64,000 nucleotides of DNA from Candidatus Omnitrophota bacterium. GTDB lineage: Bacteria; Omnitrophota; Gorgyraeia; Pluralincolimonadales; Pluralincolimonadaceae. Made by a program: the position numbers and the translations under genes. Positions 1-45,241 of the stretch are shown here, piece after piece. The first letter of the stretch is position 1. Each line of letters begins with the position of its first letter. Below the pieces are notes generated by a model. That model saw only the letters and a program-made list of their open reading frames with translations. It searched no databases and was not told the origin of the DNA. Location: positions 19,545 to 83,544 of the forward strand of contig JAQUPL010000001.1 in assembly GCA_028716565.1 (NCBI GenBank). Direction: 5' to 3'.

Positions 1-2
1 GG

Positions 3-105
3 AAGCCTTCGGAGAAGAAAGAGGTATATGACAACCAGCTCCAGACCGCAGTGGACGCGATAAAGACGATGAGGATATACAAGTCCTCCGTTGTTAAAAA
101 ATGAG
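3..105 (+). CDS. 3' end of an upstream CDS running off the window start (C-terminus ...IKTMRIYKSSVVKK); product unknown
   Basis: Frame 3 is open from the window edge to TGA at 103-105. It overlaps the next ATG by 4 nt (ATGA), typical of operon coupling. No recognisable motif. Confidence 0.3.
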
Positions 106-1282
106 CAGGATAAACATCCGCAATATTATAGTTGTCATAGCGGCGGTTATATGCGCTGCTTTCCTGTTCAATGCGGCCAGGGACCTGTTTCACGACAGGA
201 CTATCGAGCGCATCCTGAATGCCGAACTCGCCGCCGGGAAGGTCTCCAACAAGGACATGGTCGGCAAAGTAAAACATGTCTACCTCGAAAAGAGATACTG
301 GGTCCCGGATTCTTTCTCCTTCGATGATTTCGAAAGGCGTCTCGGTAAGTCACTCGACAAGGCCGGGTTTAAATTATTGCCGGTCTCGAGGACGGTAAAA
401 GAGAGCGCGGTAAAGGCCGCAGTCCCCGGAGGGAGCAGGGCCCCGGCGGGGGCCAAGAAAGAATTAAGGGAAGAGGCGTCTTTCCTGATCGCGGAACGCC
501 CGTCGAGCAACCCCGTATTCCGCCTGACGCTTATCCACAGGGTTCCGGCCATCCCGGCGCCGCCGGCTCCGAAACCCCCGGTCATCCCTGCGCCCCCTGG
601 AGTAAAACCGTCCCCGGTAACTCCGCGTCCGAAGCTGGCTATAGTGCTGGACGACTGGGGATACAACACGAAAAATCTCGACACTCTTCTGCAATTGGAC
701 ATGCCTCTGACGGTTTCGGTCCTGCCCGACCTGCCGTATTCTACGCTCATCGCGCAAAAAGCGAAAGAGCGCGGCTTCGAGGTGATCCTGCACATGCCCA
801 TGGAACCTAAGGCCAAGATGAGGCTTGAGCTGATGACGCTTCGCACCGACATGAGCGAAAAAGAGATACAGGCCGGGTTTTCCAAGGCGCTGCAGACAGT
901 CCCCGGCGCGGACGGGGTCAATAATCACGAGGGATCCAAGGCTACCGAGGACCGTAAGTTCATGAGGGTAGTGTTCGGCGAACTTAAAAAGAATAACATG
1001 TTCTTCCTCGACAGCCTCGTTACGAACTATTCCGCTTGCGAGCGGGTCGCGAAAGAGACTGGCGTGAGGTTCGTCAAGAGGTCGGTATTCCTCGATAACG
1101 AGAGCGATCCCGCCTATATAAAAAAGCAGGTCGAAAAGGCGATGGCCCTCGCGATAAAGAGCGGCGCCGCGGTAGCGATCGGGCACGACCGCCCTAACAC
1201 CATAGCCGTTCTGAAAGAGATGATACCGGTCATCGCGAGCAAGGGCATAGAGATGGTATACGTATCGAATTTGGCGAGGTAA
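101..1282 (+). CDS. divergent polysaccharide deacetylase (YibQ/DUF610 family) with N-terminal TM helix and Pro-rich linker
   Basis: 393-aa ORF with an N-terminal hydrophobic segment (IIVVIAAVICAAFLF) and a PAPPAPKPPVIPAPPG linker. The C-terminal half (LAIVLDDWGYN...ILHMPMEP...GVNNHEGS...IGHDRPNT) matches the YibQ-type divergent polysaccharide deacetylase fold. Confidence 0.7.
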   Translation: MSRINIRNIIVVIAAVICAAFLFNAARDLFHDRTIERILNAELAAGKVSNKDMVGKVKHVYLEKRYWVPDSFSFDDFERRLGKSLDKAGFKLLPVSRTVKESAVKAAVPGGSRAPAGAKKELREEASFLIAERPSSNPVFRLTLIHRVPAIPAPPAPKPPVIPAPPGVKPSPVTPRPKLAIVLDDWGYNTKNLDTLLQLDMPLTVSVLPDLPYSTLIAQKAKERGFEVILHMPMEPKAKMRLELMTLRTDMSEKEIQAGFSKALQTVPGADGVNNHEGSKATEDRKFMRVVFGELKKNNMFFLDSLVTNYSACERVAKETGVRFVKRSVFLDNESDPAYIKKQVEKAMALAIKSGAAVAIGHDRPNTIAVLKEMIPVIASKGIEMVYVSNLAR

Positions 1283-1287
1283 GGATA

Positions 1288-2283
1288 ATGCTTGTCCTCG
1301 GCATCGAGACATCTTGCGATGAGACGGGTGCCGGCGTGGTAAAGGACGGCAACAGAGTGCTCTCCGACGCGGTAGCTTCTTCTCTCGAATTCCATAAGAG
1401 ATACGGCGGTGTAGTACCGGAGATAGCCACGCGCTACCATCTGGAAGTCATCGATTATGTGGTGAAGGATTCGCTCAGATCGGCCGGCAAAACGTTGAAA
1501 GATATCGATCTCGTCGCGGTGACACAGGGGCCGGGACTGGTCGGCGCGCTCCTTGTCGGGATATCGTTCGCAAAATCCCTCAGTTATTCCCTCGGTATAC
1601 CGGTCGTAGGCGTAAACCATCTCTGGGCGCATATCTACTCAGGGCTCATCGGCCGCACCAAGGTCAAATTCCCGATCATGGGCCTTGTCGTTTCCGGAGG
1701 CCATACCAGCCTCGTCCTTTGCGAAGATATAGGAAAATTCAGGTTGCTCGGCCAGACGAGGGACGACGCGGTGGGCGAGGCGTTCGACAAGGTCGCAAAG
1801 ATACTAGGGCTTGGTTATCCGGGCGGGCCGGCGATCGAAAAGGCGGCGCTCCGCGGCGACCCGGACGCAGTCAGGTTTACTTACCCATATATGGGCGATG
1901 ATTCATACGATTTTAGTTTCAGCGGGATGAAAACTGCGGTATTATATCATGTGAAGGGCCGGAAGCTTACCGCTGCAATGAAAGCGGATATCGCGGCGAG
2001 TTTCCAGAAGGCCGCTGTCGGAGCGATCGTCGAAAAAGCCGTATCGGCCTGCGCGGAAAAAAAGATAGGCTGCCTGGTCGTAGGCGGAGGTGTGAGCGCC
2101 AACAGGATATTAAGGGACAAACTTACCGGCGCCGGCGAAAGGAACGGGATAGAAGTCATATTCCCGCCGATGCGGCTTTCGCTCGATAATGGCGCGATGA
2201 TCGCCTCAACGGGTTACCTTTTATTCAAGAACGGGAAGAGGTCGGGACTATCCCTGACCGCTGAACCGGATCTCGGGATCTAG
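1288..2283 (+). CDS. tsaD: tRNA N6-adenosine threonylcarbamoyltransferase TsaD (Kae1/Gcp family)
   Basis: N-terminus MLVLGIETSCDETGAGVV, a HxxH-like metal site (VNHLWAHIY), GVSAN and FPPMRLSLDNGAMIA motifs. About 331 aa, typical of TsaD. Confidence 0.92.
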   Translation: MLVLGIETSCDETGAGVVKDGNRVLSDAVASSLEFHKRYGGVVPEIATRYHLEVIDYVVKDSLRSAGKTLKDIDLVAVTQGPGLVGALLVGISFAKSLSYSLGIPVVGVNHLWAHIYSGLIGRTKVKFPIMGLVVSGGHTSLVLCEDIGKFRLLGQTRDDAVGEAFDKVAKILGLGYPGGPAIEKAALRGDPDAVRFTYPYMGDDSYDFSFSGMKTAVLYHVKGRKLTAAMKADIAASFQKAAVGAIVEKAVSACAEKKIGCLVVGGGVSANRILRDKLTGAGERNGIEVIFPPMRLSLDNGAMIASTGYLLFKNGKRSGLSLTAEPDLGI

Positions 2284-2299
2284 CTAGAAGGAGAGAGCG

Positions 2300-2983
2300 A
2301 TGGGACTTAGCGAATATGATATGATAATCAGGCTGTGCCTGGCCGCGATATTAAGCGGGTTTATAGGATACGAGCGCGAGGTCCACGGGAGGCTGGCCGG
2401 CCTGAGGACACATATCCTCGTAGGTATCGGCTCGACCCTCATAATGCTTACTTCGATGCATATATTTGATATATACAGGGGAGTGGCGACCCCCGACCCT
2501 GCCCGCATCGCGGCGCAGGTCGTTAGCGGTATAGGTTTTCTCGGAGCCGGCACGATAATAAGGTTTAAGGCCTCGGTCCGCGGCCTTACGACCGCGGCAA
2601 GCCTCTGGACCGTCGCGGGCCTCGGCCTCGCGGTCGGCGCGGGCTTATTTATAGCGGCTACCGTTACGACGATCCTGGCGTTAGTGGCCCTCTTCTTCCT
2701 TAACAGGCTGGAGAGGGTAATGATAAGGAGGGATTGGTATAAGTTCCTCGAGATAGACACAAAGGCCGGCGCCTCTCAGCTCCAGGAGATACGGTCGGTC
2801 CTTTCCGAGTATGACGCGGAGATAAAAGATTTCGACGTGAAAAGATCCTCGTCTTCCGAGGACCTCATCATAAAGATCAATGTCAAGCTTTTGACCAACG
2901 AATTCGATAGCGAGATATTGTCCAAGATTCGCGAACTGGACGGGGTCAAGAGAGCGGGTTGGTCGTCGTCGGTCGATTCATAA
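2300..2983 (+). CDS. mgtC: MgtC/SapB family membrane protein with C-terminal ACT-like domain
   Basis: The MgtC signature (LAAILSGFIGYEREVHGRLAGLRTHILVGIGSTLIM...GIGFLGAGTII) is followed by a soluble C-terminal domain. Confidence 0.8.
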   Translation: MGLSEYDMIIRLCLAAILSGFIGYEREVHGRLAGLRTHILVGIGSTLIMLTSMHIFDIYRGVATPDPARIAAQVVSGIGFLGAGTIIRFKASVRGLTTAASLWTVAGLGLAVGAGLFIAATVTTILALVALFFLNRLERVMIRRDWYKFLEIDTKAGASQLQEIRSVLSEYDAEIKDFDVKRSSSSEDLIIKINVKLLTNEFDSEILSKIRELDGVKRAGWSSSVDS

Positions 2984-3005
2984 AAGCACGAGAGGGGGTG
3001 TCAAG

Positions 3006-3539
3006 ATGCTCGGCAAAGGAAGGAAAGCGGAAGAGAAGGTATTGGATGTCGATGCCAGCATGCAGGGAACGATGTCTTTCAAGGACCCGGTGAATTTGCA
3101 GATAAACGGGAGGTTTGAAGGCACGCTTGACACGAAGGGAACGCTTACCATCGGAGAGAAGGCATTCGTAAGCGCGAACATAGTCGGAGACGAGATAACC
3201 ATTGCGGGCAGGGTGACCGGCGAAGTGGTCGCGAAAAAATCCCTTAAGCTCATCTCCCCGGCGCGCGTCGACGGGAACATAAAGACGCCGCTCCTGGAGA
3301 TAAGCAAGGGAGCCGTCCTGAACGGCAATTGCCAGATGGTCTCCGGAGGAAGGGCCTCGTCGCAGGCTGCGGCCGAATTGATGGAAGTGGAGGAGGTCGC
3401 CAGGTACCTCGAGGTCGATTCGTCGGTGGTCAGGGATTGGGCGGTCAGCGGAAAATTGCCCGCGATAAGGGAAGGTGACAGGCTGCATTTTGATAAAACC
3501 AAGATAGATGAGTGGATCGCATCGGAACGAATTAAATAA
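3006..3539 (+). CDS. bactofilin-domain protein fused to a C-terminal excisionase/MerR-type helix-turn-helix (HTH_17-like) domain
   Basis: Bactofilin beta-helix repeats (INGRFEGTLDTKGTLTIGEKAFVSANIVGDEITIAGRVTGEVVAKKSLKLISPARVDGNIKTPLLEISKGAVLNGN). The C-terminus (EVEEVARYLEVDSSVVRDWAVSGKLPAIREGDRLHFDKTKIDEWI) matches excisionase-family HTH DNA-binding domains. Confidence 0.65.
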   Translation: MLGKGRKAEEKVLDVDASMQGTMSFKDPVNLQINGRFEGTLDTKGTLTIGEKAFVSANIVGDEITIAGRVTGEVVAKKSLKLISPARVDGNIKTPLLEISKGAVLNGNCQMVSGGRASSQAAAELMEVEEVARYLEVDSSVVRDWAVSGKLPAIREGDRLHFDKTKIDEWIASERIK

Positions 3540-3903
3540 GGCATTCAACGCTCCGGCCGAACAGGAGAAGCTTATAAGCCTCCATGACGCCGCGGATATC
3601 CTTGAGTTGAGCGAGGAGGAACTGCGGCGTTTCGTCGCCGAAGGGAAGATCCCCGCTTACAGGATCGGCGGCGAATACCTGAGGTTCAGGAAGAGCCAAG
3701 TCGAGGCCTTGCGCAGCAGGATACGCATACTGAAGCACCAGTCGGTCCCGATACTCGACATCAGGCCGGCGCAGAGGGAAGAGAAGAAGGCCGGGTACTC
3801 GATATTCGACAGGATAAGGGATTTCGTATATTTTAACGATTTCTATATCCTCGCGTTCATTTTGATCGTCCTTTTAGTGGCGTTCATTCTCCTGAGAAGA
3901 TAG
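3508..3903 (+). CDS. excisionase-type HTH (HTH_17-like) protein with C-terminal transmembrane anchor
   Basis: LISLHDAADILELSEEELRRFVAEGKIPAYRIGGEYLRFRKSQVEAL is an HTH_17-like motif. The C-terminus (FYILAFILIVLLVAFILL) is a predicted TM helix. The ATG at 3508 overlaps the preceding gene by 32 nt, so the true start is uncertain. Confidence 0.5.
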   Translation: MSGSHRNELNKAFNAPAEQEKLISLHDAADILELSEEELRRFVAEGKIPAYRIGGEYLRFRKSQVEALRSRIRILKHQSVPILDIRPAQREEKKAGYSIFDRIRDFVYFNDFYILAFILIVLLVAFILLRR

Positions 3904-3908
3904 GCATC

Positions 3909-4658
3909 ATGGATTATTCCAGGCGTTCAATAAAAAAAGTACTCTCTCATCTTAAAGACGGCAGGATCTCCCGGGGGGCGGCTTTCAAGAAGTTCGAGCA
4001 TTTTCCTTTTCACGACATGGGTTTTGCCAAGATAGATTTCCACCGCGCCATCCGCAAAGGTTTCCCCGAAGTCATATTCGCGCCCGGCAAGAAAGACCGC
4101 GATATCGCCGAGATAGCGAAACGTATCATCGCCAGCGGGAATACGCTCCTTATCACCAAGGCCTCACCGGAATTATACGGGTATCTTCGTATCTCCATAC
4201 CCGTCCTGAAGTTCAACGAGGACGCGAGGATGATATATTACGCGAGGAAGCGGCCGCGGCTCAAAAAGAGCGAGGTGCTTATCGTGACCGCCGGCACATC
4301 GGATATTCCCGTCGCCGAGGAGGCGGTGTTGACGCTTGAACTCCTCGGGAACCGCGTTGGGAAGCTTTACGATGTCGGGGTCGCGGGCATACACAGGGTG
4401 GTCGGCAATATCCCGCTCCTGAAGAAGGCTAAGGTCATAATAGTCGTAGCCGGGATGGAGGGGGCGCTGGCCTCGATAGTCGGCGGGCTTGTCGCCTGCC
4501 CGGTCATAGCCGTGCCGACGTCGGTGGGATACGGCGCTTCGTTCGGCGGGCTGTCGTCGCTATTAACGATGCTGAACTCGTGCGCGCCCGGTGTGTGCGT
4601 GATGAATATCGATAACGGTTTCGGCGCCGGATATTTCGCGGGGCTTATAAATAAATGA
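3909..4658 (+). CDS. larB: nickel-pincer cofactor biosynthesis protein LarB (PurE-like nicotinic acid adenine dinucleotide carboxylase/hydrolase)
   Basis: PurE-like C-terminal domain (VLIVTAGTSDIPVAEEA...VVAGMEGALASIVGGLVACPVIAVPTSVGYG) with an N-terminal extension of about 100 aa, as in LarB. It is immediately upstream of larC, overlapping by 4 nt. Confidence 0.8.
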   Translation: MDYSRRSIKKVLSHLKDGRISRGAAFKKFEHFPFHDMGFAKIDFHRAIRKGFPEVIFAPGKKDRDIAEIAKRIIASGNTLLITKASPELYGYLRISIPVLKFNEDARMIYYARKRPRLKKSEVLIVTAGTSDIPVAEEAVLTLELLGNRVGKLYDVGVAGIHRVVGNIPLLKKAKVIIVVAGMEGALASIVGGLVACPVIAVPTSVGYGASFGGLSSLLTMLNSCAPGVCVMNIDNGFGAGYFAGLINK

Positions 4659-5839
4659 CCCATCACAAAAAAATATTATACCTTGATTGCCCGAGCGGGA
4701 TAAGCGGCGATATGTTCCTGGGGTCGCTCATAGATTGCGGCCTCGATATCAGGCGCCTCGCCTCGCAGCTGCGCAAGATTAAGATAGGCGTATATAAATT
4801 GGCGGCGCGCAAAGTCTCTCGCGCCGGCGTATCAGGCGTCAAATTCGACGTCATATATAAAAAGCACCGTGGGCACGAGCATACTGATGACAAGACATTC
4901 AAGGGCATCGCGAAGGCGATAAATTCATCAGGCCTCTCAAGCCGGGTCAAAGAAACATCCGTCGCGGTATTTACCAATCTCGCGAAAGCGGAGAGCAGGG
5001 CCCACGGGATCCCGGTTGGGAAGGTGCATTTCCACGAGGTCGGAGATATAGATTCCGTCGTGGATATAGTCGGCGCCTGCGTCGCTCTGGAGGAGATGGG
5101 AATAGATGAGGTTTATTCTTCGCGCCTCACTGTCGCCAATCCCGCTCCGGCGACCGCTTACCTGTTGCAGGGGATAGATATCTCCGTCGCCGTCTCGCCT
5201 TTTGAATTGGCCACACCCACAGGCGCCGCGCTCCTTAAGACATTTTCAAGATCACAGATCGATATACCGGCAATGAAGGTCCTCCGGGCCGGGTTCGGCG
5301 CCGGAAGCCGCGAGATCCCGGGCCGGCCGAACCTGCTCAAGGCGATAATAGGCGAGAGAAGGACAAACGGCGATGCGGATATCGTCACGGTATTGGAGAC
5401 CAACATCGATGATATGAACACCCAGGTCTACGGGTATCTTATCGACAGGCTCTTTGAGGCGGGGGCGCTGGATGTTTATATCACGCCTGCGATAATGAAA
5501 AAATCGCGGCCCGCCTGCGTATTGACGGTCCTCTCCGGGCCCTCGACGGCCGGGGTTCTCTCGGGGATCATCTTCGAAGAGACGTCCACATTCGGCATCA
5601 GGCGGCATAACGCCGAACGGCTGAAACTTGAACGTAAAATAGTTGAAGTAAAGACAAAATATGGTAATATAAAGGTGAAGGCGGGCTTCTACAAGGACTC
5701 GCTTAATATCTGTTCTCCGGAATACGAAGATTGCAAAAGGATCGCGGGGCTCAAAAAGGTTCCTTTTTCGGCCGTTAGGCGCGAGGCCGAGGCCGCAGCG
5801 CGCAGGAACATAAAAGGGGAGAAGCGGGGATTTGCTTAA
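4655..5839 (+). CDS. larC: nickel insertion protein LarC (DUF111; pyridinium-3,5-bisthiocarboxylate mononucleotide nickel chelatase)
   Basis: The N-terminus KILYLDCPSGISGDMFLGSLIDCGLD is the characteristic LarC/DUF111 start. Length is 394 aa. Confidence 0.85.
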   Translation: MTHHKKILYLDCPSGISGDMFLGSLIDCGLDIRRLASQLRKIKIGVYKLAARKVSRAGVSGVKFDVIYKKHRGHEHTDDKTFKGIAKAINSSGLSSRVKETSVAVFTNLAKAESRAHGIPVGKVHFHEVGDIDSVVDIVGACVALEEMGIDEVYSSRLTVANPAPATAYLLQGIDISVAVSPFELATPTGAALLKTFSRSQIDIPAMKVLRAGFGAGSREIPGRPNLLKAIIGERRTNGDADIVTVLETNIDDMNTQVYGYLIDRLFEAGALDVYITPAIMKKSRPACVLTVLSGPSTAGVLSGIIFEETSTFGIRRHNAERLKLERKIVEVKTKYGNIKVKAGFYKDSLNICSPEYEDCKRIAGLKKVPFSAVRREAEAAARRNIKGEKRGFA

Positions 5840-7541
5840 TAAGAGCAGGCTCATAGCCGAATACGTCAGGTCCATAGGGATCCTGGAAGAATCCCAGGTC
5901 AAGAACGTCCTTAAGTCACAGGTCGAATCAGGCGGCCGTCTCTCCGACATCCTCACCGGAATAGGTTTTTTAAAGATAGAGCAGCTCAGGGACCTCATCG
6001 TGCAGGAATTCTCCCTCGCCCGTTCCCCGATCTTCGACATGGAGATACCATTCGATGTGCTCCAGAAGGTAAAACCGAACATCGCCTACCGGCACAGGAT
6101 GGTGCCTATTAAATACGCGGACGACGTGCTTACGGTCGCCACCGATGATCCCATAAATCTCCTCGCGCAGGATAATCTCGAAGACTTAACCGGGTGTAAA
6201 TTAAATTTTGTCCTGACCTCGGAGACCAATCTTTCGATCGCGCTAGAAAAACATTACGGGGGCAGCAAGAACATCCTCGATGCGGTCGCGCAGAAAAAGG
6301 ATTCGGAGATAGCGGTATCTTTCAAGGGAGCGGCCGGAGAGGTCGCCAAGGAAGAGGAGAAAGAGGAAGCCCCGATAATAAAACTGGTCACGCAGATAAT
6401 CGCCGAGGCCGTAAAGAACCGTGCCTCGGATATCCATGTCGAGCCGCTCGAAGATAAATTCCGCATACGGTACAGGATAGACGGCGTCTTGCACGAAGTG
6501 CCGGGCCCGCCCAAGCAGCTGCAGCCGTCTATCATAAGCCGCCTGAAGATCATGGCCGGTATGAATATAGCGGAGAAGAGGTTGCCCCAGGACGGCAGGA
6601 TAAGGATCCATGGCGCGGGAAAGGACCTCGACCTGCGTGTTTCCACGCTCCCTGCTCTTTATGGTGAAAGCGTGGTCATGAGGATCCTCGATAAATCGAG
6701 CTTCATGCTGGGCCTTAAGGAATTGGGATTTCTCCATGGGGACGCGGACACGTTTGAAAGGCTGATACATCTCCCTTACGGGATGTTGCTTATAACCGGT
6801 CCCACCGGCAGCGGCAAAACGACGACGTTATACGCCTCGCTTAGCTATATCAATAAGCCGAACAAAAAATTAATAACGATCGAGGACCCGGTCGAATACC
6901 AGATCTCAGGGATAAACCAGGTCCACGTCAAGCCTTCGATCGGCCTGACTTTCGCTTCCGGCCTCAGGACGATGCTGAGGCAGGCGCCCGACGTCATAAT
7001 GGTCGGCGAGATACGCGATTTCGAGACGGCGTCTATCGCGATACAGGCGGCCCTGACCGGGCATCTCCTCTTCAGCACGCTCCATACCAACGACGCTGCC
7101 GGCGCTTTTACGCGCCTGATAGATATGGGCGTAAAATCGTATCTGGTGAGCTCTACGGTGCAGGCGGTCATGGCCCAGCGCCTCGTCAGGAAGATCTGCG
7201 ACAACTGCAGGGAAAACTATCAACCGAGCCTAGAGGAATTATATGTGCTTGGTTACAAACAGGACGATCCGAAAGCAAGCGAGATAAAATTATGGCGCGG
7301 GCACGGCTGCAAGAACTGCAATTATACGGGCTACCGGGGAAGGATAGGCATTTTCGAGCTTCTTATCAATACCGACGAAATAAGGGAGATGATCATAAAG
7401 AGGCTGCCTTCTCCCGAGATCAGGGACGCGGCCCGGAAGCACGGCATGAAACTCCTGCGCGAGGACGGCCTCTCGAAAGCGCTGGAGGGCATAACCACTA
7501 TATCTGAGGTCGTGCGCATAACGCACGGTTACGAGGAATAA
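5832..7541 (+). CDS. gspE: type II secretion / type IV pilus assembly ATPase (GspE/PilB family), paralog 1
   Basis: T2SSE_N-like N-domain, Walker A GPTGSGKTTT, Asp box, Walker B DVIMVGEIRD, His box LTGHLLFSTLHTNDAAGA and a tetracysteine zinc motif (CDNC...CKNC). Apparent TTG start overlaps the larC end by 8 nt. Confidence 0.9.
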   Translation: MLNKSRLIAEYVRSIGILEESQVKNVLKSQVESGGRLSDILTGIGFLKIEQLRDLIVQEFSLARSPIFDMEIPFDVLQKVKPNIAYRHRMVPIKYADDVLTVATDDPINLLAQDNLEDLTGCKLNFVLTSETNLSIALEKHYGGSKNILDAVAQKKDSEIAVSFKGAAGEVAKEEEKEEAPIIKLVTQIIAEAVKNRASDIHVEPLEDKFRIRYRIDGVLHEVPGPPKQLQPSIISRLKIMAGMNIAEKRLPQDGRIRIHGAGKDLDLRVSTLPALYGESVVMRILDKSSFMLGLKELGFLHGDADTFERLIHLPYGMLLITGPTGSGKTTTLYASLSYINKPNKKLITIEDPVEYQISGINQVHVKPSIGLTFASGLRTMLRQAPDVIMVGEIRDFETASIAIQAALTGHLLFSTLHTNDAAGAFTRLIDMGVKSYLVSSTVQAVMAQRLVRKICDNCRENYQPSLEELYVLGYKQDDPKASEIKLWRGHGCKNCNYTGYRGRIGIFELLINTDEIREMIIKRLPSPEIRDAARKHGMKLLREDGLSKALEGITTISEVVRITHGYEE

Positions 7542-7542: not shown

Positions 7543-9279
7543 ATGGCTTCGGAAAAAGATCAACAGTCTAAACAGGAAAAATTCAAGAAGATAGGCCAGA
7601 TGCTTCTCGAGAAAGGCCTTATAAATGACCATCAATTGGAACAGGCCCTCGAGGAACAGAAACTGACGGGAAAACTCCTGGGCCGGATCTTGATCGATAT
7701 GGGGCTGGTCAAAGAGGAGGATATCCTCCAGGTCCTCGGCGCGCGCTCAGGCTTCTCGGTAGCAAGGCTTAAGGGTACGAAGATCCCGAAGGAGGTCATC
7801 GACAAGGTCCCGGCCTCGGTCGCCAAGATATATACTATCATTCCCGTCGCCATCGACGGTAACCAGCTCACCGTCGCTATCGCCGATCCGCTGAATGTGG
7901 CTGCCTTCGACGACCTGCGGTTTACCCTCGGGATGAACATCAAGGGCGTCGTAGCCAGTGATGAGGAGATAAAAGAGGAGATACAGAAATATTACGGCGC
8001 CGAGGGCGAGACGATACAGGATGTCCTGGGCGTATTCGGCGAAAAGATGGAACTCCTCCCGGTCGGAGAAGAAGCGACGGATATTTCCACGCTGCAGGAG
8101 CTCGCTTCCCGCGCCCCGGTCATAAAATTATTGAACATGATATTACTGCAGGGAGTCAAAGAGAAGGCCTCGGACATACATTTTGAGCCGTTCGAATCGG
8201 ATTACAGGATAAGATACAGGGTAGACGGCGTCCTTTATGAGGTGGCGCGGCCCCCGAAGAACTTGAGCCTCGGACTTTCGTCGAGGATAAAGGTCATGGC
8301 GAACCTCGATATAGCCGAACGAAGGCTTCCCCAGGACGGGCGCATCATGGTCACGATAGAAGGAAAGAGCGTCGACCTCAGGATCTCGACATTGCCGACG
8401 ATTTTCGGAGAGAGCGTCGTCATGAGGGTGCTCGACAGGACTACTGTCAGCCTTTCGATCGACGATGTGGGGATGCTCGAGGATACAAAGAAGAAGATAC
8501 GCGCCCTGATCATCAAGCCCAACGGGATACTCCTAGCTACCGGGCCGACAGGCTGCGGCAAAACGACCACTTTGTACGGCTGTATGAAGGAGATAAACAA
8601 GATAGAATATAAGGTCATCACGACCGAGGATCCCGTCGAGTACGACCTTAAAGGCGTAATACAGGTGCCGATAAACGCCAAGATCGGCCTCACCTTCGCG
8701 GCATCGCTGCGCCACATCTTAAGGCAGGACCCCGATATAATCATGGTCGGCGAGATCCGCGACGCCGAAACCGCCCAGATAGCCATCCAGGCCTCGCTCA
8801 CCGGACATCTCGTCTTCTCGACCATACACACCAATGACGCGGCAGGGACCATAACCAGGCTTATAGATATGGGCGTCGAGCCGTTCCTGGTGACCTCGAC
8901 GCTCGAGGCTGTACTTGCCCAACGCCTAGTCAGGAAGATATGCCAGTTCTGCAAAGAGGAATATACGCCCGAGCCGGAGATGCTATCCGACCTGGGGATA
9001 AAGCCTGAAGTCGCGAAGGGGAAGAAGTTCTACAGGGGAGCCGGCTGCGTAAAATGCAATAATTCCGGATATAAAGGAAGGACCGGCATATTTGAGCTCC
9101 TTATCCTTAACGACAAGCTCAGGGCACTGATAATAGAGAAGGCCCATACCGCATTGATAAAAGAGGCCGCCATAGAGGCCGGCATGAAGACCCTTCTTAA
9201 CGACGGCCTTGAAAAGGTATTCCTCGGCGCCACTACGCTCGAGGAGGTCCTTAAAGAAGCCCAGACTGCGATCCTTTGA
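7543..9279 (+). CDS. gspE: type II secretion / type IV pilus assembly ATPase (GspE/PilB family), paralog 2, with MshE-N-like N-terminus
   Basis: Walker A GPTGCGKTTT, Walker B DIIMVGEIRD, His box LTGHLVFSTIHTNDAAGT and a zinc motif CQFC...CVKC. The N-terminus (KIGQMLLEKGLINDHQLEQALEEQ then LGRILIDMGLVKEEDILQVL) fits the tandem MshEN c-di-GMP-binding pattern. Confidence 0.9.
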   Translation: MASEKDQQSKQEKFKKIGQMLLEKGLINDHQLEQALEEQKLTGKLLGRILIDMGLVKEEDILQVLGARSGFSVARLKGTKIPKEVIDKVPASVAKIYTIIPVAIDGNQLTVAIADPLNVAAFDDLRFTLGMNIKGVVASDEEIKEEIQKYYGAEGETIQDVLGVFGEKMELLPVGEEATDISTLQELASRAPVIKLLNMILLQGVKEKASDIHFEPFESDYRIRYRVDGVLYEVARPPKNLSLGLSSRIKVMANLDIAERRLPQDGRIMVTIEGKSVDLRISTLPTIFGESVVMRVLDRTTVSLSIDDVGMLEDTKKKIRALIIKPNGILLATGPTGCGKTTTLYGCMKEINKIEYKVITTEDPVEYDLKGVIQVPINAKIGLTFAASLRHILRQDPDIIMVGEIRDAETAQIAIQASLTGHLVFSTIHTNDAAGTITRLIDMGVEPFLVTSTLEAVLAQRLVRKICQFCKEEYTPEPEMLSDLGIKPEVAKGKKFYRGAGCVKCNNSGYKGRTGIFELLILNDKLRALIIEKAHTALIKEAAIEAGMKTLLNDGLEKVFLGATTLEEVLKEAQTAIL

Positions 9280-16053: not shown

Positions 16054-16113
16054 TAAAATTACCAGGAAGCGGAGTTGTTTTTATGTCAGCTACCCTCGCG
16101 GGCATACGAGAAA

Positions 16114-18681
16114 ATGAAAATAAGAATAAGAAAAAATAACAAGGGTATCGCCCTCATAGTGACGGTCGGCGTCCTCGCGATGATGCTGATAATCGGGACA
16201 TCTTTCACCATCAATATGATGGCCGATCACAGGTCGTCGGTGAATATGGCGATGGCGGCGCAGGCCAGGGCCGCGGCAGAGGCGGGATTGAATATCGCTA
16301 TCGTATCGGCGAGGAACCTGGCCGTCAGCGATTTCAACGGCGTGCCTGCCGCTACCATGAGCGGCTCTCTCGGGAACGTGGGGAGGGGGAATACCGCCGC
16401 CTATTCCGTCAATATAACCGATACCGCGAGCCAGCTCAACGTAAACGACACAAATCCCGGGTTGGAAGATATGCTCGAAAGCCTTGTTGCCATACTGGGA
16501 AGCCCTCTTCAGGCCGGCGACGGGACCGCGATTATTTCATACCGCTCGACCCTCACGGGCGGAGTTTATATCACAAAGGAACAGGTTACCGACGCGTTTT
16601 CCGGCACAACCTCCGTAAAACAGGCCAAGTTCAACAAGATAGCGGAATATGTGACGGTAAATGGTTATATAGACGAGAACAGCGAGGATTCTACGGCCTC
16701 GTCTTTTACAGGCCTGGATAATCCTAACTCGACTTACCAGCGCAAGGCGCCGGTAAATATAAATAAAGCGGACGCTAAAGTGCTTAGGGCTGTTTTAGCG
16801 CCTGTCATTACGCCGACAGATCCTGCCACGTTAGCCGGTGATATTATTACAAGAAGAAACACGAATTTCTTTACCAGTTGGAATGATTTTGACGGTTTTA
16901 TAGACGGCCTTGGTTACCTGACCGCCGCTGAAAAAATAAAAATAAAAAATAACGCGAATCCGAATAAAGTAAAAGTTGATAGCGTGGGAGTCCCCCTCTC
17001 TTATACAACTGATTTTTGCTTCCATCCCGGCGGCGTTTACGAGATAACATCTACCGGGACGGCCGGACCGGCCCAGAAACGGATAACCGCTCTCGTGCGG
17101 ATATATGATGTCATAAATTACACGACGAAAGAGCAGTTCAGGGGAGATACTTACACGGTCATCCCTGCCGTATATGATGGCACATTGCCGATTTTTAAGA
17201 ACGTAAATTGGCTTAACAGCTGTCCGGTTACCTCCGATTACGACAATGGATTGGAGGTCGACCCGCCAAACTACAGCACTAACGCCATCGCTAATTCCCT
17301 TAAACTGGGTTTCTGGGATAACTTTGATGAAGATAATGATAATGTCAGTAAAACAGGATGGAGCTGGCGGAATTGGCAAGATTCCAGTCCCGATGGTCAT
17401 GATATAGTAATAACTGATGTTAATCCCGTGTATCCTAACCCCCCCGGTGCCCATGGTCCTCAACCTAATTTAACGGATGGCGATAACGAATTGAGCGATG
17501 ACGCATCTTATGGACCGACGGCGTTGGCTTATCTAGATTTACGGGGCACTCAAAGCGGACAGTGGAATTGCAATCAGGAATTCTCCCTGAGAGTCTATTG
17601 TAATGTTCTTAAAAATCCTCCGCCTCAGGCTGGCTATCCTCTTGCTAATAATTATTATGACAGCAATGACCGCTGGGAGGGTTATGAGGATACTGAGCAG
17701 ATAGACTTCGTTCCTGCGGGCCAGACGGGCCAGATATATATCAGTAACTTTCGTTGTGTGTACTTTGGGGACTACGGGTCCAGGGCAATCATCGATGGAA
17801 TAGGGTACGACGTACCCGGCGATTTTATAGATTCCATGTTAAGATTGAATTTCTACGGCGGCGGTGGTGACCATTATATGTACTTAAACAAGGACATGGA
17901 CGGCAACTACATGTATTCTTCGATAGGCGACGTGTCTCCTTTACATACACTGGTTCCGGCGGATGCGAACAGGATAGTTCCTATTAATGCTACTTTCAGG
18001 TTGATTGTACATGGGGCAGCAGACAACAATTATCAGATTTATCTGGCAGTTTCCCCCACCGGGATCGCTTATCATGAATGGCCGGACTCAACGAACGCTC
18101 AGGCTGGGATATGTGAGGCTGACGGAGGGGCATGGATTCCCTGGCTTTGGCAGATTCATTATCTTATCTACAATGCCGTTGACAAAAACTATCATCAATT
18201 TGTCGATACGGGAGCGGATGACAGATATGGCTATATGGAGTCGCAGTTTTGGCATGACCAAACAGCAAACAGATTTATATATACTGATTGGTATTTGAGA
18301 TTAATTAACCATCCGTCCACGATTTACGGACGTTACGCTTTATTCGATGAAGTCCGCTTGATCCCTGACCAGGGCTATTACATTTCTCCCGCGTCCACCA
18401 CGGCAAGTAACGGGCGCTTTGGCACCGCGTCGTGGACTTTGGCTATCCCGCCGGGCGCAGTTACTAATGAAAGGGCTGCGGTGGAAATTTCCAGAGACGG
18501 GGGGGCTAGCTTTAGTCCGGTAAATATCAACGGTGGCGCGAATATCGATCCTTCGACGACCATGTGTTTCAAAGTCACTTTATTATCGGACGACCCGCAG
18601 CATTTACAGACGCCTGTCCTTGAGGACATTACTCTTACCCGTTTGCCAAAGGTAGCGGTCTTATATTGCAAATATGAGTAA
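16114..18681 (+). CDS. second giant GspK-like pseudopilin (about 855 aa)
   Basis: N-terminus MKIRIRKNNKGIALIVTVGVLAMMLIIGTSFTINM and GspK-like motifs (SQLNVNDTNPG, PVNINKADAKVLRAVLAPV). The C-terminal about 600 aa are W/Y/N/D-rich. The ORF is open from 16075; the ATG at 16114 is preferred by analogy with the first GspK-like gene. Confidence 0.6.
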   Translation: MKIRIRKNNKGIALIVTVGVLAMMLIIGTSFTINMMADHRSSVNMAMAAQARAAAEAGLNIAIVSARNLAVSDFNGVPAATMSGSLGNVGRGNTAAYSVNITDTASQLNVNDTNPGLEDMLESLVAILGSPLQAGDGTAIISYRSTLTGGVYITKEQVTDAFSGTTSVKQAKFNKIAEYVTVNGYIDENSEDSTASSFTGLDNPNSTYQRKAPVNINKADAKVLRAVLAPVITPTDPATLAGDIITRRNTNFFTSWNDFDGFIDGLGYLTAAEKIKIKNNANPNKVKVDSVGVPLSYTTDFCFHPGGVYEITSTGTAGPAQKRITALVRIYDVINYTTKEQFRGDTYTVIPAVYDGTLPIFKNVNWLNSCPVTSDYDNGLEVDPPNYSTNAIANSLKLGFWDNFDEDNDNVSKTGWSWRNWQDSSPDGHDIVITDVNPVYPNPPGAHGPQPNLTDGDNELSDDASYGPTALAYLDLRGTQSGQWNCNQEFSLRVYCNVLKNPPPQAGYPLANNYYDSNDRWEGYEDTEQIDFVPAGQTGQIYISNFRCVYFGDYGSRAIIDGIGYDVPGDFIDSMLRLNFYGGGGDHYMYLNKDMDGNYMYSSIGDVSPLHTLVPADANRIVPINATFRLIVHGAADNNYQIYLAVSPTGIAYHEWPDSTNAQAGICEADGGAWIPWLWQIHYLIYNAVDKNYHQFVDTGADDRYGYMESQFWHDQTANRFIYTDWYLRLINHPSTIYGRYALFDEVRLIPDQGYYISPASTTASNGRFGTASWTLAIPPGAVTNERAAVEISRDGGASFSPVNINGGANIDPSTTMCFKVTLLSDDPQHLQTPVLEDITLTRLPKVAVLYCKYE

Positions 18682-18700
18682 AAGGAGAAAAAAGAATAAA

Positions 18701-19780
18701 ATGAGACAGGTGTTTCCCGTATTTTTTTTGATGTTCTTTTTGGCCGCGGCTTTTCCGGCCACGGCAGCCGATGTTAGCCAGCCGGAAGCACTTGATGAAT
18801 CCGTAGGCCATCCGGATGCCCTTGGCGAATTCAACAAAAGATTTTCGGAGATAAAGGCAGGTGATGCCGCGGCTTATTATAATTTGGCGGTGTACTGTCT
18901 AGATAACGATCTCCCGGAACAAGCGGAATACCTGCTCGGTGAAGCAGCTAAAGATCCATCTTTTGAAAAAAGGGCGAAAAGACTTCTCGAAGTGCTTACA
19001 GGTGAACCGGACAAGTCTTATTATGAATCCGCGTTTAAGCACTATGAATCGGGGTATCTTGCGGAGGCTAAAGCAGAGATCGAAATGCTAAAAGCCTCTT
19101 ATCCCAAAAGCCATTATATTCGTAAAGCGAGGTCTCTTCTGAAAAAGATTGACAAGGAAGCGCTTGATAAACCTTATCTTTTGACGAATTCCGCCGATCC
19201 CGGTAAAATTATTGCTTCTTTGAATCAGAGCGCGGAAAAAGAGGAAGGCAATGCGGAGGAATTGAAAAAGGAATATCTTACGGATATCCTCAAGAAGGCT
19301 GAGTATTTCGCGGATGTTATGGCAGCCAAAGCTCCTTCCAAGGGAAAAAAGGAAGAATATTTATTCTATGCGATAAAATGCGCGGAAAAAGTATCCGGAT
19401 TGTCGGATGACGCTGAATTAAAAAATAAAGCCGGGGATCTGAGAGGCAAGATCACCAAGCAATTATTTGTTGAACACCCGGTATCCGAAGATTTGAAAAA
19501 TATAGACAGCTATTATGAGAAGTTATACTTGGTCAAAGATAGTGGTTTTGTCGAGGATGTATGCGGCAAATATACCAAGACGGGAGAGGAATATTTAAAG
19601 AAAGCCCGGAAGGCCTCGGGCGCTGAAAAAATAAGTAATCTTGTTAGCGCCTATAGATGTTTCTCGTTTGCCAATGCCTATACGAAGTCCGAGAAGATGA
19701 AACAGGAGACTTTTCAAAAGATGGAGCTTATTAATGCCGAAAAAAGGAAGGAGATAAGCAAGAAGAAAACGTCAAATTAG
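18701..19780 (+). CDS. secreted lysine-rich helical/TPR-like protein of unknown function within the secretion locus
   Basis: Signal peptide MRQVFPVFFLMFFLAAAFPATAA. The mature part is K/E/A/Y-rich with TPR-like pairs. An AAGGAG RBS lies upstream of the ATG at 18701; the ORF is open from 18674. Confidence 0.45.
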   Translation: MRQVFPVFFLMFFLAAAFPATAADVSQPEALDESVGHPDALGEFNKRFSEIKAGDAAAYYNLAVYCLDNDLPEQAEYLLGEAAKDPSFEKRAKRLLEVLTGEPDKSYYESAFKHYESGYLAEAKAEIEMLKASYPKSHYIRKARSLLKKIDKEALDKPYLLTNSADPGKIIASLNQSAEKEEGNAEELKKEYLTDILKKAEYFADVMAAKAPSKGKKEEYLFYAIKCAEKVSGLSDDAELKNKAGDLRGKITKQLFVEHPVSEDLKNIDSYYEKLYLVKDSGFVEDVCGKYTKTGEEYLKKARKASGAEKISNLVSAYRCFSFANAYTKSEKMKQETFQKMELINAEKRKEISKKKTSN

Positions 19781-21511: not shown

Positions 21512-22273
21512 ATGCCAAAAGGCATGAACGAGTCGTTGACGACTAAGATCTCCTTGGGAGCGGTCATACTTGTCTCATTTCTTTTTTTAGGGATAACCGT
21601 GTATGACAGGTTGAGGATCGAAGGGGCTGTCGTGCAGAAGCAGGAGCAGCTCAAGGTCTACAAAAACCAGGGCCTCGGTTTCCTGAGCAGCGAAAAGAAC
21701 CGCCTTGAGAGGCAGCTCAAGGCCATGCGGGGAGCCGACAAGGAGATAAGCGGCATGCTCTTCTCTAAACCGTCCTCCCGGATGGTTAAGGAGGTCGGGG
21801 ATCCCCTTAAATTCAAGGAGGAGTTGTACAAGGTCCAGAATAAGATAAAAGAGGACGGCGCTTCCATAAATTTCCAATTCCCGTTCTGGCTGGGTTTCGA
21901 GAGGTACCAACACGATATACCGAATCCGGCGGACCTTCCGTTCAGGGTAAAGCAGCTCGACATAATAAACGAGATCGGCAGCCTTGCCCTGGCCTCGAAG
22001 GTGCCGGAGATCTCGACGATCGAATTCCTTGAGATCAGGAAAATAACGGCGGACAACAAGGAAATCCTTTTCATGGAATTTCCCGTCAGGGTGGTCATTA
22101 AGTGCGGTAACGAGAGCCTGACCAATTTTATGTATAAGCTGAGCGTCGCGGATATGCCTTTCAGGGTGGATTCGTTTAAAATAAAAGTTTCCGCAGACGA
22201 AAGCGCGGCCGAGGGTGACATGACCGGCGAGTTGGTCATAGTCGCTGCCGTATTGCCGGCGGAGAAGATATGA
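21512..22273 (+). CDS. GspM/PilO-like inner-membrane assembly protein
   Basis: N-terminal TM (ISLGAVILVSFLFLGITVY), a coiled-coil segment and a C-terminal alpha/beta domain. It sits between the GspL-like gene and the GspC/PilP-like gene. Confidence 0.5.
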   Translation: MPKGMNESLTTKISLGAVILVSFLFLGITVYDRLRIEGAVVQKQEQLKVYKNQGLGFLSSEKNRLERQLKAMRGADKEISGMLFSKPSSRMVKEVGDPLKFKEELYKVQNKIKEDGASINFQFPFWLGFERYQHDIPNPADLPFRVKQLDIINEIGSLALASKVPEISTIEFLEIRKITADNKEILFMEFPVRVVIKCGNESLTNFMYKLSVADMPFRVDSFKIKVSADESAAEGDMTGELVIVAAVLPAEKI

Positions 22274-22947
22274 AAGGCGCATCCCGGATAGTAGCCGCAG
22301 CAGCGTTCATTCTATGGATATTGGCGATGTGGAAATCGTCTTCGGTCTTTGAGTCAAAGCAAGTCCCATTCTATCCGGAAGAAGGCAAAGGGGAAGCTAT
22401 TCCCGCTAAGGAAGGCGCCGCCGCCCTGCCGAACTCTTTTTCGTACGTGGAAGAATTGCTCAAATCCCCCTATGCCGTCTCGAGATACAAGCCCCTCCTC
22501 GACAAGAACATGTTCATAAAGCCCGAACCCCCGGTCAAGGTCTTTTCGCCTGAAGACCTGACGTTAGTATCCGTCACGGCCGTACCCCTGCCTTTTATGT
22601 ATAAAGGTTTTATCGAGGTGTCGGACGGGACCATAATAGGCCAGATCAACTGGTCCGGTAAGACGTATTTCGTGAAGAAGGGGCAAAAGGTCAAAGACTA
22701 CAAAGTGACGGAGATCAACAGCAAGATTGTCAAGATGGAAAACAAGGATGGCCAGGTTACCCTCGAGTTAAAGAAACCCGCGAAGAGCAAGGAATTGGTC
22801 GCAAAACTGCACGATTCGATGAATAATAAGGATATCGAGGCAAAGAAGGGTGACCTGATCGGAGAGTATAAAGTTCTTGACATAAAAACCGATTCTGTGG
22901 TATTATACGGCCAAAATAAAGAGTGGGTTATAACAAAGGGGAGATGA
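22270..22947 (+). CDS. membrane-anchored periplasmic protein, possible GspC/PilP-like secretin-interacting component
   Basis: N-terminal TM (IVAAAAFILWILAMW) and a beta-rich C-terminal domain. Assignment rests on position only; there is no strong motif. Confidence 0.35.
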   Translation: MKGASRIVAAAAFILWILAMWKSSSVFESKQVPFYPEEGKGEAIPAKEGAAALPNSFSYVEELLKSPYAVSRYKPLLDKNMFIKPEPPVKVFSPEDLTLVSVTAVPLPFMYKGFIEVSDGTIIGQINWSGKTYFVKKGQKVKDYKVTEINSKIVKMENKDGQVTLELKKPAKSKELVAKLHDSMNNKDIEAKKGDLIGEYKVLDIKTDSVVLYGQNKEWVITKGR

Positions 22948-22952: not shown

Positions 22953-24080
22953 ATGAGTATGACCAATGAGGTTAAAAGAACAGCGGGTAGGTTCTTTGTT
23001 TGCATCTTTTTGGCTTTTGATTCGTTCTTTATTATCTCATTAGGTAATGCTTTTTGCGCCAGGGTTTACGCCGCTTCCGATGCTGATATAGCCGGGGACT
23101 CAGTCGAGGCGAGGATAATAGCACAGGACCTGGCCAAAGAGAAAAAAGTCGAACAAAAATCCCTCATTAAAGACCTCTTCGATCAAGCCAAGAGCGAATA
23201 CGACGCTAAAAATTACGAAACGGCGCAGCGGATTTTCGAGAGGATAGTCCAGCTGGACCCCAAGAATAAACAGGCCGTCCATTATGTCGAGATGTGCAAA
23301 GAGGGCATAGTAAAGACCGTCCCCGATACGATAACAGGCTCTATGATAAAGCGCGGCAAAGCGAATTACGCGAAAAAAGAATATTCCGCAGCGGTAGGTG
23401 ATTTTGAAAGCGCGCTCGCCGCGAACCCCAGTGACGCCGAAGCCCGGGATTGGTTGATCAAGGCGAGGCAGGCCGAGGGGTTAGTCGCGAGGGAAAAGGC
23501 TACCAAGGAAGAGCGCAAGTATGTCGTAAAGGACAGGCACGTAACGAACGAGGAGAAGGATACATCCGAGCAGAAGGCACTGCTCGACGTGGATAGAGGA
23601 TGGCTGCCTCCGGAGAAGACCGGCAGGGAAGAGTTGCAGGTTGAAGAGGTGATACCTGAGTCGGAAAAGGCCGACATGGAAGCGAGGAAGAAGCTCGAGG
23701 AAAAGATGGCGAGTGTTATCGTCCCGGCCATATCGGTTACCGACGCCGACGTCCAGGACCTTATCCGACAGTTGACTGAGATGACGGGAGTAACTATCGT
23801 CATCGACGAGAAGGAGCTGTCCGCCCTCACCAGAGAGCAGCCGCTGAAGATCACGATCAGCACGGCTGCGCCTATGCCGTTGCTCGATATACTGGGTATC
23901 GCGTTCAAGACTACGCAACTCGCTTATAAGGTCGAGCCGAATTACGTTTATGTATCGAGCAGAGAGAATATAATGAGAGAAGGCCTTGTCACGAGGACTT
24001 ACAAGCTCAAATACGGCGAACGCAAAACTCGCGCAGTCAAATTAACAGAGTTTGAAACCAAGTCGGCAGAGGCGAAATGA
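22953..24080 (+). CDS. TPR-repeat protein with C-terminal secretin N0-like (Secretin_N) domain; stand-alone secretin N-terminal module
   Basis: Signal/TM segment, TPR-like repeats (AKNYETAQRIFERIVQLDPKN; KKEYSAAVGDFESALAANPSD), then a segment (ISVTDADVQDLIRQLTEMTGVTIVIDEKELS...KITISTAAPMPLLDILGIAFKTTQLAYKVEPNYVYVSS) resembling PilQ/GspD N0 domains, at nt about 23709-23967. Confidence 0.55.
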   Translation: MSMTNEVKRTAGRFFVCIFLAFDSFFIISLGNAFCARVYAASDADIAGDSVEARIIAQDLAKEKKVEQKSLIKDLFDQAKSEYDAKNYETAQRIFERIVQLDPKNKQAVHYVEMCKEGIVKTVPDTITGSMIKRGKANYAKKEYSAAVGDFESALAANPSDAEARDWLIKARQAEGLVAREKATKEERKYVVKDRHVTNEEKDTSEQKALLDVDRGWLPPEKTGREELQVEEVIPESEKADMEARKKLEEKMASVIVPAISVTDADVQDLIRQLTEMTGVTIVIDEKELSALTREQPLKITISTAAPMPLLDILGIAFKTTQLAYKVEPNYVYVSSRENIMREGLVTRTYKLKYGERKTRAVKLTEFETKSAEAK

Positions 24081-45239: not shown

Positions 45240-45241
45240 AG

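Follow-up and report, generated by a model that had tools for sequence, protein, structure and literature searches.

A bactofilin–winged-helix fusion and its tail-anchored partner form a phylum-wide paired module in Omnitrophota

A 64,000-nucleotide stretch of DNA from a Candidatus Omnitrophota bacterium (assembly GCA_028716565.1, contig JAQUPL010000001.1; hereafter the window) encodes two small, overlapping open reading frames, ORF1 and ORF2, that form a real, phylum-wide and strictly paired core module of Omnitrophota. ORF1 is a fusion of a bactofilin with a C-terminal winged helix-turn-helix (HTH) domain of the excisionase type, while ORF2 carries a homologous winged helix and a predicted C-terminal membrane anchor. 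Our tentative reading of this pair is that a membrane-bound bactofilin scaffold and its tail-anchored winged-helix partner may hold DNA at the membrane. A full-text search of the literature returned no paper on a bactofilin-HTH fusion, nor on bactofilins in Omnitrophota, in line with the first-pass annotation of this DNA, made from the sequence alone, whose author knew of no characterised example.

Results

ORF1 joins a bactofilin to a folded C-terminal winged helix

Positions 3006-3903 of the window hold exactly two plus-strand ORFs, ORF1 at 3006-3539 (177 aa) and ORF2 at 3508-3903 (131 aa). The first-pass annotation had described ORF1 as a bactofilin joined to a C-terminal HTH_17 motif, and both halves are borne out by Pfam matches above the gathering cut-offs. 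Bactofilin (PF04519) matches residues 12-110 with an E value of 2.7e-24 (85.7 bits against a cut-off of 27.9) and covers profile positions 2-98 of 98, and HTH_17 (PF12728) matches residues 126-174 with an E value of 6.7e-10 (39.5 bits against a cut-off of 27). An AlphaFold2 model built from a 60-sequence alignment likewise has two domains (mean predicted local distance difference test score, pLDDT, 83.7), with a beta-helix at residues 12-111, disorder at 114-122 and a winged helix at 125-176.

The beta-helix core (residues 12-111; 3039-3338, plus strand), the bactofilin polymerisation domain, is modelled with a pLDDT of 86-97 over residues 20-110. Foldseek places it in the PDB with Caulobacter BacA (2n3d, TMt 0.85) and a Thermus bactofilin (6rib, TMt 0.89), and profile searches of PDB sequences with ORF1 agree with these matches. 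In common with the canonical bactofilins BacA (2n3d) and TtBac (6ria/6rib), ORF1 has the DUF583 beta-helix and a hydrophobic residue at the polymerisation position. The polymerisation residues of BacA (F130) and TtBac (F105) correspond to L105 of ORF1, where the family column reads L51/F20/I7/V1; from this sequence comparison we infer that ORF1 polymerises.

The N-terminal tail MLGKGRKAEEK (residues 1-11; 3006-3038, plus strand) is short and basic, and its first seven residues, MLGKGRK, include L2, K4 and K7. The membrane-targeting sequence of BacA is MFSKQAKS, in which F2, K4 and K7 are critical, and the global bactofilin consensus is MFSKKKK (PMC12448750). Family N-termini are of the M-[LMAI]-x-[KR]-rich type with a mean net charge of +1.9, but they are variable, some reading MRRRR. 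By its likeness to the BacA sequence in these three positions, the tail of ORF1 may bind the membrane.

ORF1 differs from canonical bactofilins in its first beta-helix turns, where the stretch VLDVDASMQG...DPVNL.ING is near-invariant in the family, unusually so for a bactofilin. It also differs at its C-terminus: canonical bactofilins end in short, disordered and poorly conserved tails (PMC12448750), whereas ORF1 ends in a folded, conserved winged helix of the Xis/BldC/MerR type (residues 125-177; 3378-3536, plus strand). The flexible linker that joins the two domains (residues 112-124; 3339-3377, plus strand) has a pLDDT below 50 at residues 114-122 and falls in gapped, unconserved alignment columns; it varies across the family in both length and sequence.

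ORF2 combines a winged helix with a predicted tail anchor

ORF2 starts within ORF1 in the +1 frame, and the resulting 32-nt overlap (3508-3539, plus strand) suggests translational coupling. The same -32 overlap is shared by 16 closer loci among L001-L018, while the spacing in other clades runs from -28 to +129 nt. A start of ORF2 3' of the ORF1 stop was considered and rejected, the frame offering no ATG, GTG or TTG before the HTH domain and the overlapping ATG being conserved in the near clade.

The overlap itself, an HTH_17 domain and a C-terminal transmembrane segment had all been ascribed to ORF2 in the first-pass annotation, and all are recovered here. HTH_17 (PF12728) matches residues 25-68 (E 1.1e-8, 35.7 bits against a cut-off of 27), and both proteins also pass the cut-off of 28.8 bits for the NCBIfam model TIGR01764 'excise' (ORF1 34.1 bits, ORF2 32.0 bits), so that both HTH assignments hold up in profile searches. 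The AlphaFold2 model of ORF2 is weaker than that of ORF1 (mean pLDDT 64) and shows a winged helix at residues 21-77, disorder at 79-97 and helices at 99-109 and 111-130. The winged helix with the helix that follows it (residues 21-77; 3568-3738, plus strand) matches Pukovnik Xis (4j2n) among PDB profiles with an E value of 5e-6, and its fold matches comprise RacA (5i44), BldC, Pukovnik Xis, MerR-type DNA-binding domains and CbpM. A disordered linker follows (residues 78-97; 3739-3798, plus strand), with a pLDDT below 50 at residues 79-97; its length is very variable across the family, whose members measure 93-151 aa in total.

Beyond the linker lies a near-invariant juxtamembrane motif, D-R-I-R-D-F-x-Y-F-N-D-F-Y (residues 98-113; 3799-3846, plus strand). 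Its family consensus is RDFFYFNDFY, in which D105 and F112 are each conserved at 100%, D111 at 97%, and Y108 and Y113 each at 96%. The motif is confined to ORF2 orthologues within about 0.8 Mb of sampled loci and matches no Pfam family. We considered whether it might be a general sorting signal of the PEP-CTERM or LPXTG kind and rejected this, as the motif is found only in ORF2 orthologues, there is no signal peptide and no NCBIfam sorting domain matches.

The C-terminal transmembrane helix (residues 111-130; 3838-3897, plus strand) is indicated by hydropathy and by a helix modelled at a pLDDT of 87-93. Residues 111-129, DFYILAFILIVLLVAFILL, have a 19-residue Kyte-Doolittle mean of 2.97 and form an AlphaFold2 helix of pLDDT about 90, after which come only one or two basic residues (a terminal RR in the window). 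With a soluble winged helix at the N-terminus, no signal peptide and a single hydrophobic helix at the extreme C-terminus, ORF2 is predicted from sequence and model to be a tail-anchored membrane protein.

The pair is conserved across the phylum

In a collection of 5.8 billion proteins, the 120 homologues that match ORF1 best are all 173-188 aa long and all carry both Pfam domains; those with named sources come from Candidatus Omnitrophota or Omnitrophica. A bactofilin-HTH_17 fusion is encoded in at least 572 species genomes, counting one genome per GTDB species, nearly all of them with an Omnitrophota label. Among 1.84 billion representatives at 50% identity, an exhaustive HMMER search yielded only 48 clusters at E <= 1e-30, of which about 25 are full length. 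The architecture is not a common one, and ORF1 represents a narrow, coherent family. The protein MDD5072770.1, from a metagenome-assembled genome (MAG) of Candidatus Omnitrophica, matches ORF2 at 100% identity.

Loci were compared in 80 retrieved records drawn from the at least 572 fusion genomes, all labelled either Omnitrophota or, with the same gene neighbourhood, by the placeholder 'uncultured Planctomycetia'. BLAST places an ORF2 orthologue directly 3' of the fusion in 75 of the 80 loci, and four of the five misses are contig ends. Inspection of the fifth (L080) reveals a divergent gene with an HTH domain and a transmembrane segment in the same place. An HTH-transmembrane gene therefore follows the fusion in 76 of 76 informative loci, at intergenic distances of -32 to +129 nt. 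In distant loci the median identity to the window protein is 55.3% for ORF1, 53.5% for TsaD, 56.7% for LarB and 38.5% for ORF2; the conservation of ORF1 thus equals that of its housekeeping neighbours TsaD and LarB.

The pairing also extends to a divergent fusion, P0139, which is flanked by a SPOR-domain gene and a TPR-PDZ gene; here too the next gene encodes an HTH_17 protein, of 97 aa, that has a transmembrane helix at its C-terminus. In a locus of a divergent clade (L081 1-4841, GCA_964565945.1) the fusion and its HTH-transmembrane partner come after SPOR-domain and TPR-PDZ proteins and not after TsaD and MgtC. SPOR domains typically bind septal peptidoglycan, and this neighbour is a possible hint of a connection to the division site. 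A more distant clade (P0180/P0336) lacks the HTH-transmembrane partner and lies near a ParA/MinD-like ATPase. In the locus of P0336, a fusion of 188 aa from JGI metagenome 3300009777 (L084 1-4850), no partner occurs downstream. Three genes away is a ParA/MinD-like ATPase of 465 aa that carries a glycogen-binding CBM48/AMPK1_CBM domain in the same chain, and the neighbourhood also includes a volactin-like actin gene (PF25216) and two proteins of 216-217 aa without a Pfam match.

The MAG Go_SlDig_bin_77 carries the TsaD-MgtC-fusion-partner block on two contigs (L009 and L011), with 84% and 82% identity to ORF1 of the window, which is probably due to strain mixture or bin contamination rather than true paralogy. 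Close bactofilin relatives sharing V[DT]A[SN]MQGT...DPVNLRI carry other C-terminal modules in the representative library: P0156 is a bactofilin with a PilZ domain (PF07238, E 6.7e-10), and P0148 ends in hydrophobic helices resembling transmembrane segments. Their sequences suggest a modular bactofilin family in which a polymer would display an effector domain.

Both winged helices belong to the BldC/Xis fold

The winged helices of ORF1 and ORF2 are homologous (hhalign probability 96.8%, 23% identity) and share the predicted topology helix-helix-strand-strand-helix. Foldseek matches the domain of ORF1 to BldC-DNA complexes (6ama/6amk), Pukovnik Xis (4j2n), a RacA-DNA complex, RdfS, the DNA-binding domain of pSK1 Par, and CbpM; for BldC 6amk, TMt is 0.82 at 33% identity. 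BldC and the Xis-type excisionases (6ama, 6amk, 4j2n), which consist of a winged helix alone, are the best relatives of both domains in sequence and fold. They are, however, stand-alone basic proteins of 50-70 aa, whereas the domains described here are fused or anchored, ORF1 has Glu or Asp at the position of the essential BldC Arg30, and no recombinase lies nearby. Membership in the BldC family (NF033787, stand-alone, about 68 aa) was considered and rejected: ORF1 scores 25.8 bits against a cut-off of 77, both ORFs fall below the cut-off, and the Arg30 and Lys26 contacts are not kept.

Proteins that match the HTH part of the profile include P0169 (417 aa), P0196 (479 aa), P0177 (231 aa) and P0213 (135 aa), which consist of 2-7 tandem canonical, basic HTH_17 repeats. 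Such arrays are a covalent counterpart of the head-to-tail oligomers of BldC and Xis.

Genomic context

Over the 64 kb of the window (GC content 53%), 57 of the 58 predicted genes of at least 90 aa lie on the plus strand, and many stop and start codons adjoin or overlap in an extreme co-directional packing. Annotation covered 48 of the 58 genes, all but the last 10 (about 52-64 kb). The annotated genes are of housekeeping type and include those for TsaD, MgtC, LarB, LarC, PolA, glycogen synthase, CoaE, Rho, RF1 and PrmC, together with TrmD, L19, RNase HII, folate and methyl-branch enzymes, MetH and PanB.

The stop codon of an MgtC-family gene at 2981-2983 is separated from ORF1 by 22 nt, within which a Shine-Dalgarno-like GAGAGGGGG (2990-2998, plus strand) can be read from the sequence 7 nt 5' of the ORF1 ATG; on the other side, larB begins 5 nt after ORF2. 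Over positions 1-6000 no promoter or terminator signal stands above shuffled expectation, and around the pair no Rfam or other RNA element exceeds chance. Two long minus-strand ORFs lie opposite ORF1, at 2946-3548 (200 aa) and 2978-3544 (188 aa). We treat them as shadows of ORF1, because it is the plus-strand frame that holds the Pfam domains and has hundreds of homologues.

The order deacetylase-TsaD-MgtC-pair-LarB-LarC is widespread in the phylum but not obligatory among the 80 loci; LarB is syntenic with the pair in 46 of them. LarB and LarC, of nickel-pincer cofactor biosynthesis, lie at 3909-5839 of the window, where neither LarA nor LarE adjoins them, and a functional link to the bactofilin pair is not evident. 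A link of the pair to MgtC, to LarB/LarC or to the pilus/secretion cluster further downstream was considered and rejected, given that MgtC is missing in some loci, the cluster's ATPases are adjacent in 18 of 80, and the flanks in the divergent clade are entirely different. We accordingly treat the flanking genes as conserved gene order and not as one system with the pair.

The cluster in question resembles a type IV pilus or type II secretion system and occupies 5832-26298 (plus strand). It comprises tandem GspE/PilB ATPases (5832-7541 and 7543-9279), a GspF/PilC gene, three N-methyl pseudopilins, a 992-aa PA14-domain protein, a beta-helix protein, proteins of 868 and 368 aa without a Pfam match, a PilM-PilN fusion (549 aa), a TPR protein and tandem secretins (24077-25198 and 25195-26298). 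The GspE/PilB ATPase pair adjoins the bactofilin module in those same 18 related loci. Further downstream, a methyl-branch/folate run at 43560-51126 encodes formate-tetrahydrofolate ligase, an FTCD_C cyclodeaminase-like protein, FolD, an MTHFR C-terminal-domain protein, MTHFR and an 805-aa MetH-like B12-dependent methyltransferase, which fits one-carbon metabolism in this Omnitrophota lineage. ORFs without a Pfam match, of 675, 868, 368, 253, 225 and 182 aa, fall within the intervals 41486-43513, 16075-19780, 21512-22947 and 48192-48740.

Discussion

A membrane-bound scaffold that may hold DNA

The architecture and strict pairing described above lead us to a tentative proposal, in which a membrane-bound bactofilin scaffold and a tail-anchored winged-helix partner hold DNA at the membrane; polymerisation, membrane binding, contact between the two proteins and DNA binding are here read from sequence, structure models and analogy. 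The beta-helix core of ORF1 would polymerise independently of nucleotide into filaments, attached by the MLGKGRK tail to the inside of the cytoplasmic membrane. A flexible linker of about 12 residues would let every subunit present its folded Xis/BldC-type winged helix, which would make the polymer a multivalent array of that domain. ORF2, made from the same message, would be inserted by its C-terminal tail anchor, its winged helix held in the cytoplasm on a disordered tether. The two proteins would co-assemble through contacts between their winged helices, through the invariant juxtamembrane motif of ORF2, or through both. Precedents exist for either kind of contact: BldC oligomerises head-to-tail and forms filaments on DNA (PMC5859096), and bactofilins recruit membrane clients by juxtamembrane cytoplasmic peptides (PMC12448750). 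The canonical, basic winged helix of ORF2 would serve as the main DNA contact, while the acidic one of ORF1 would act mainly as a coupling module through head-to-tail contacts of the BldC/Xis kind. By clustering many weak binders, the ORF1 polymer could create a high-avidity patch, and the assembly as a whole could function as an anchor or organiser of the nucleoid or chromosome.

Several known systems resemble parts of this proposal. RacA tethers the origin region to the pole via the membrane-associated DivIVA. Both RacA (5i44) and pSK1 Par (8csh), which are among the fold matches, combine a MerR-like winged helix with a self-associating domain and anchor or partition DNA. They differ from the pair in that self-association is through a coiled coil and not a bactofilin beta-helix, no transmembrane partner is involved, and identity is 17-24%. 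Myxococcus BacNOP-PadC-ParB/ParA likewise links a bactofilin scaffold to DNA-binding chromosome organisers: the C-terminal tail of BacP binds the adaptor PadC and through it ParA, and ParB-parS complexes attach at the ends of the scaffold (PMC5703909). In contrast to that indirect link, the DNA-binding-type domain of ORF1 is part of the bactofilin chain, and neither ParA nor ParB is encoded next to the pair.

The residues that contact DNA in BldC are known. Its recognition-helix residues Lys26 and Arg30 make base contacts, His46, Arg47 and Arg48 reach the minor groove, and the substitutions R30A and H46E each abolish DNA binding (PMC5859096). Measured against them, the winged helix of ORF1 weighs against DNA binding by the pair. 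Glu or Asp takes the place of Arg30 in 90% of the ORF1 family (D144 in the window), and Ser, Asn or Gly that of Lys26; within the wing lie E156 (96% acidic) and D158 (47% acidic); no position of the recognition helix is conserved as basic; and the domain has a mean net charge of -2. The partner, too, gives reason for caution, as the winged helix of ORF2 is weakly basic (mean net charge +0.8, range -6 to +6), its recognition helix starts with a conserved acidic run, E36-E38, and its equivalent of BldC R30 is basic in 49% of the family. Three further points tell in the same direction: the same fold can bind proteins, CbpM being among the fold matches of both winged helices; genes for partition or division are not regular neighbours of the pair, whether in the 80 loci or in the annotated part of the window; and no DNA motif or target site for the pair was identified.

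The domain of ORF1 is nonetheless highly conserved, with W145, L135, P152, F162 and W170 invariant in the family, and we read this pattern of residues as constraint for something other than canonical DNA reading. The wing of ORF2, by comparison, is canonical and basic. It reads G-G-x-F-L-R-F-R-K and has G54 and G55, with R59 conserved at 100%, R61 at 99% and K62 at 75%, and other basic positions across the family are K52 (76%), residue 40 (K40, 74%) and residue 41 (49%). When the two domains are aligned, charges are reversed at D144 of ORF1 against R41 of ORF2 and at D163 against R61. Judged by its residues, ORF2 is the more likely DNA binder of the two.

The first-pass annotation had suggested a module that tethers the cytoskeleton to DNA or to the membrane, with anchoring of the chromosome or origin as an example. 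The tethering part survives in part: the matches to DNA-bound winged helices, including that of the chromosome anchor RacA, and the strict co-conservation of the two genes speak for it, but the winged helix of ORF1 diverges from its DNA-binding relatives at the very positions where those contact DNA. Anchoring of the origin in particular found no support.

Alternative explanations

The acidity of ORF1 is the starting point of the strongest alternative, a protein scaffold that works without DNA, which we regard as rather unlikely on balance. Both winged helices would then be adaptors, and ORF2 would anchor, nucleate or position the bactofilin polymer for a role in the envelope or in cell shape in very small cells. 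A domain that lacks the canonical basic contacts and is still very conserved points to a conserved protein interface. Charges are reversed between ORF1 and ORF2 at aligned positions, and the invariant motif beside the transmembrane helix of ORF2 looks like the peptide by which a client docks on a membrane-bound bactofilin. MerR-like folds that bind protein exist, for example CbpM (3ucs), and a SPOR-domain gene adjoins the pair in the divergent clade. There are also analogues: the cytoplasmic tail of PbpC binds BacA, and RodZ is a bitopic membrane protein whose cytoplasmic HTH domain binds the MreB polymer rather than DNA. RodZ is thus a precedent for an adaptor, although it has an XRE-type N-terminal HTH domain, a mid-protein transmembrane segment and a periplasmic domain, whereas ORF2 has an HTH_17 domain, is predicted to be tail-anchored and has no periplasmic part. 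Against a DNA-free scaffold, DNA is the ligand of almost every characterised HTH_17, Xis or BldC domain, the top fold matches are DNA complexes, and ORF2 retains its basic wing; in addition, no cell-wall enzyme is a constant neighbour of the pair in the 80 loci.

The opposed charges at aligned, DNA-facing positions of the two proteins would also suit a regulatory switch, in which one winged helix, most likely that of ORF2, is a transcription factor captured by a membrane bactofilin, and the acidic winged helix of ORF1 mimics DNA and masks the DNA face of its partner. The model for such a switch is the HTH protein BacR (YhbD) of B. subtilis, whose gene shares an operon with those of the bactofilins BacE and BacF; the two bactofilins bind BacR, weaken its binding to DNA and retain it at the membrane (PMC13649987, 2026). 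BacR, however, is a soluble DUF4004 protein of about 210 aa, whereas the HTH domain of ORF1 is covalently fused to the bactofilin and that of ORF2 has its own transmembrane anchor; neither ORF resembles DUF4004 (PF13171), with no match even at E <= 1. A permanently tail-anchored ORF2 could not reach the nucleoid without cleavage, the mere 22 nt before ORF1 leave no room for an intergenic operator, promoter signals there do not exceed chance, and it would be unusual for a dedicated autoregulator to be conserved throughout a phylum as well as housekeeping genes are. We consider such a switch improbable.

Far less credible still is a mobile-element or defence role, with the two proteins acting as excisionases (recombination directionality factors) or as components of a MAD1-like methylation-associated defence. 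Both ORFs do pass the TIGR01764 'excise' domain cut-off, and MAD1 models match the HTH domains weakly. The 48 annotated genes of the window, however, include no integrase, recombinase, methyltransferase or other mobile-element or defence gene, and an excisionase role is therefore excluded; the housekeeping synteny from deacetylase to LarC, conserved across the phylum, and the lack of a cognate integrase effectively refute it by context. Identity as the MADS defence protein MAD1 (NF047737, PADLOC mad1) was likewise rejected, with scores of 38.5 and 24.3 bits against a cut-off of 80 (for BldC, 25.8 against 77), PADLOC matches at the level of the domain only, and no methyltransferase or defence genes nearby. 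Finally, a frameshift or assembly error that fused two genes, a risk raised in the first-pass annotation, has a negligible chance of being the explanation, given a confident two-domain model and the same single two-domain ORF of 173-188 aa in the 120 best homologues and in hundreds of independent assemblies.

Significance

In their known role, bactofilins are scaffolds to which clients are recruited by disordered tails or by the core. A bactofilin with a folded domain of nucleic-acid-binding type, maintained throughout an uncultured phylum as strictly as housekeeping genes and always accompanied by a membrane partner, would be a new coupling of a cytoskeletal polymer to DNA or to a regulator. 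A stronger form of our proposal, which we hold to be doubtful, is a DNA-binding cytoskeleton of Omnitrophota, in which the nucleotide-independent bactofilin polymer at the membrane grips the chromosome directly through its winged-helix array and the tail-anchored partner, as a minimal, phylum-specific device for nucleoid anchoring or segregation in ultra-small cells. If true, such a cytoskeleton would do with one or two proteins what RacA-DivIVA or BacNOP-PadC-ParB need several for. If instead the winged helices prove to have no affinity for DNA, the pair would clearly illustrate how a fold of the excisionase type can be turned into a cytoskeletal adaptor.

As a phylum-wide, syntenic core pair, ORF1 and ORF2 are more significant than a one-off fusion would be. 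Omnitrophota has no isolates (PMC10066038), and the pair, both of whose proteins are small, gives an experimental handle on the cell biology of this phylum.

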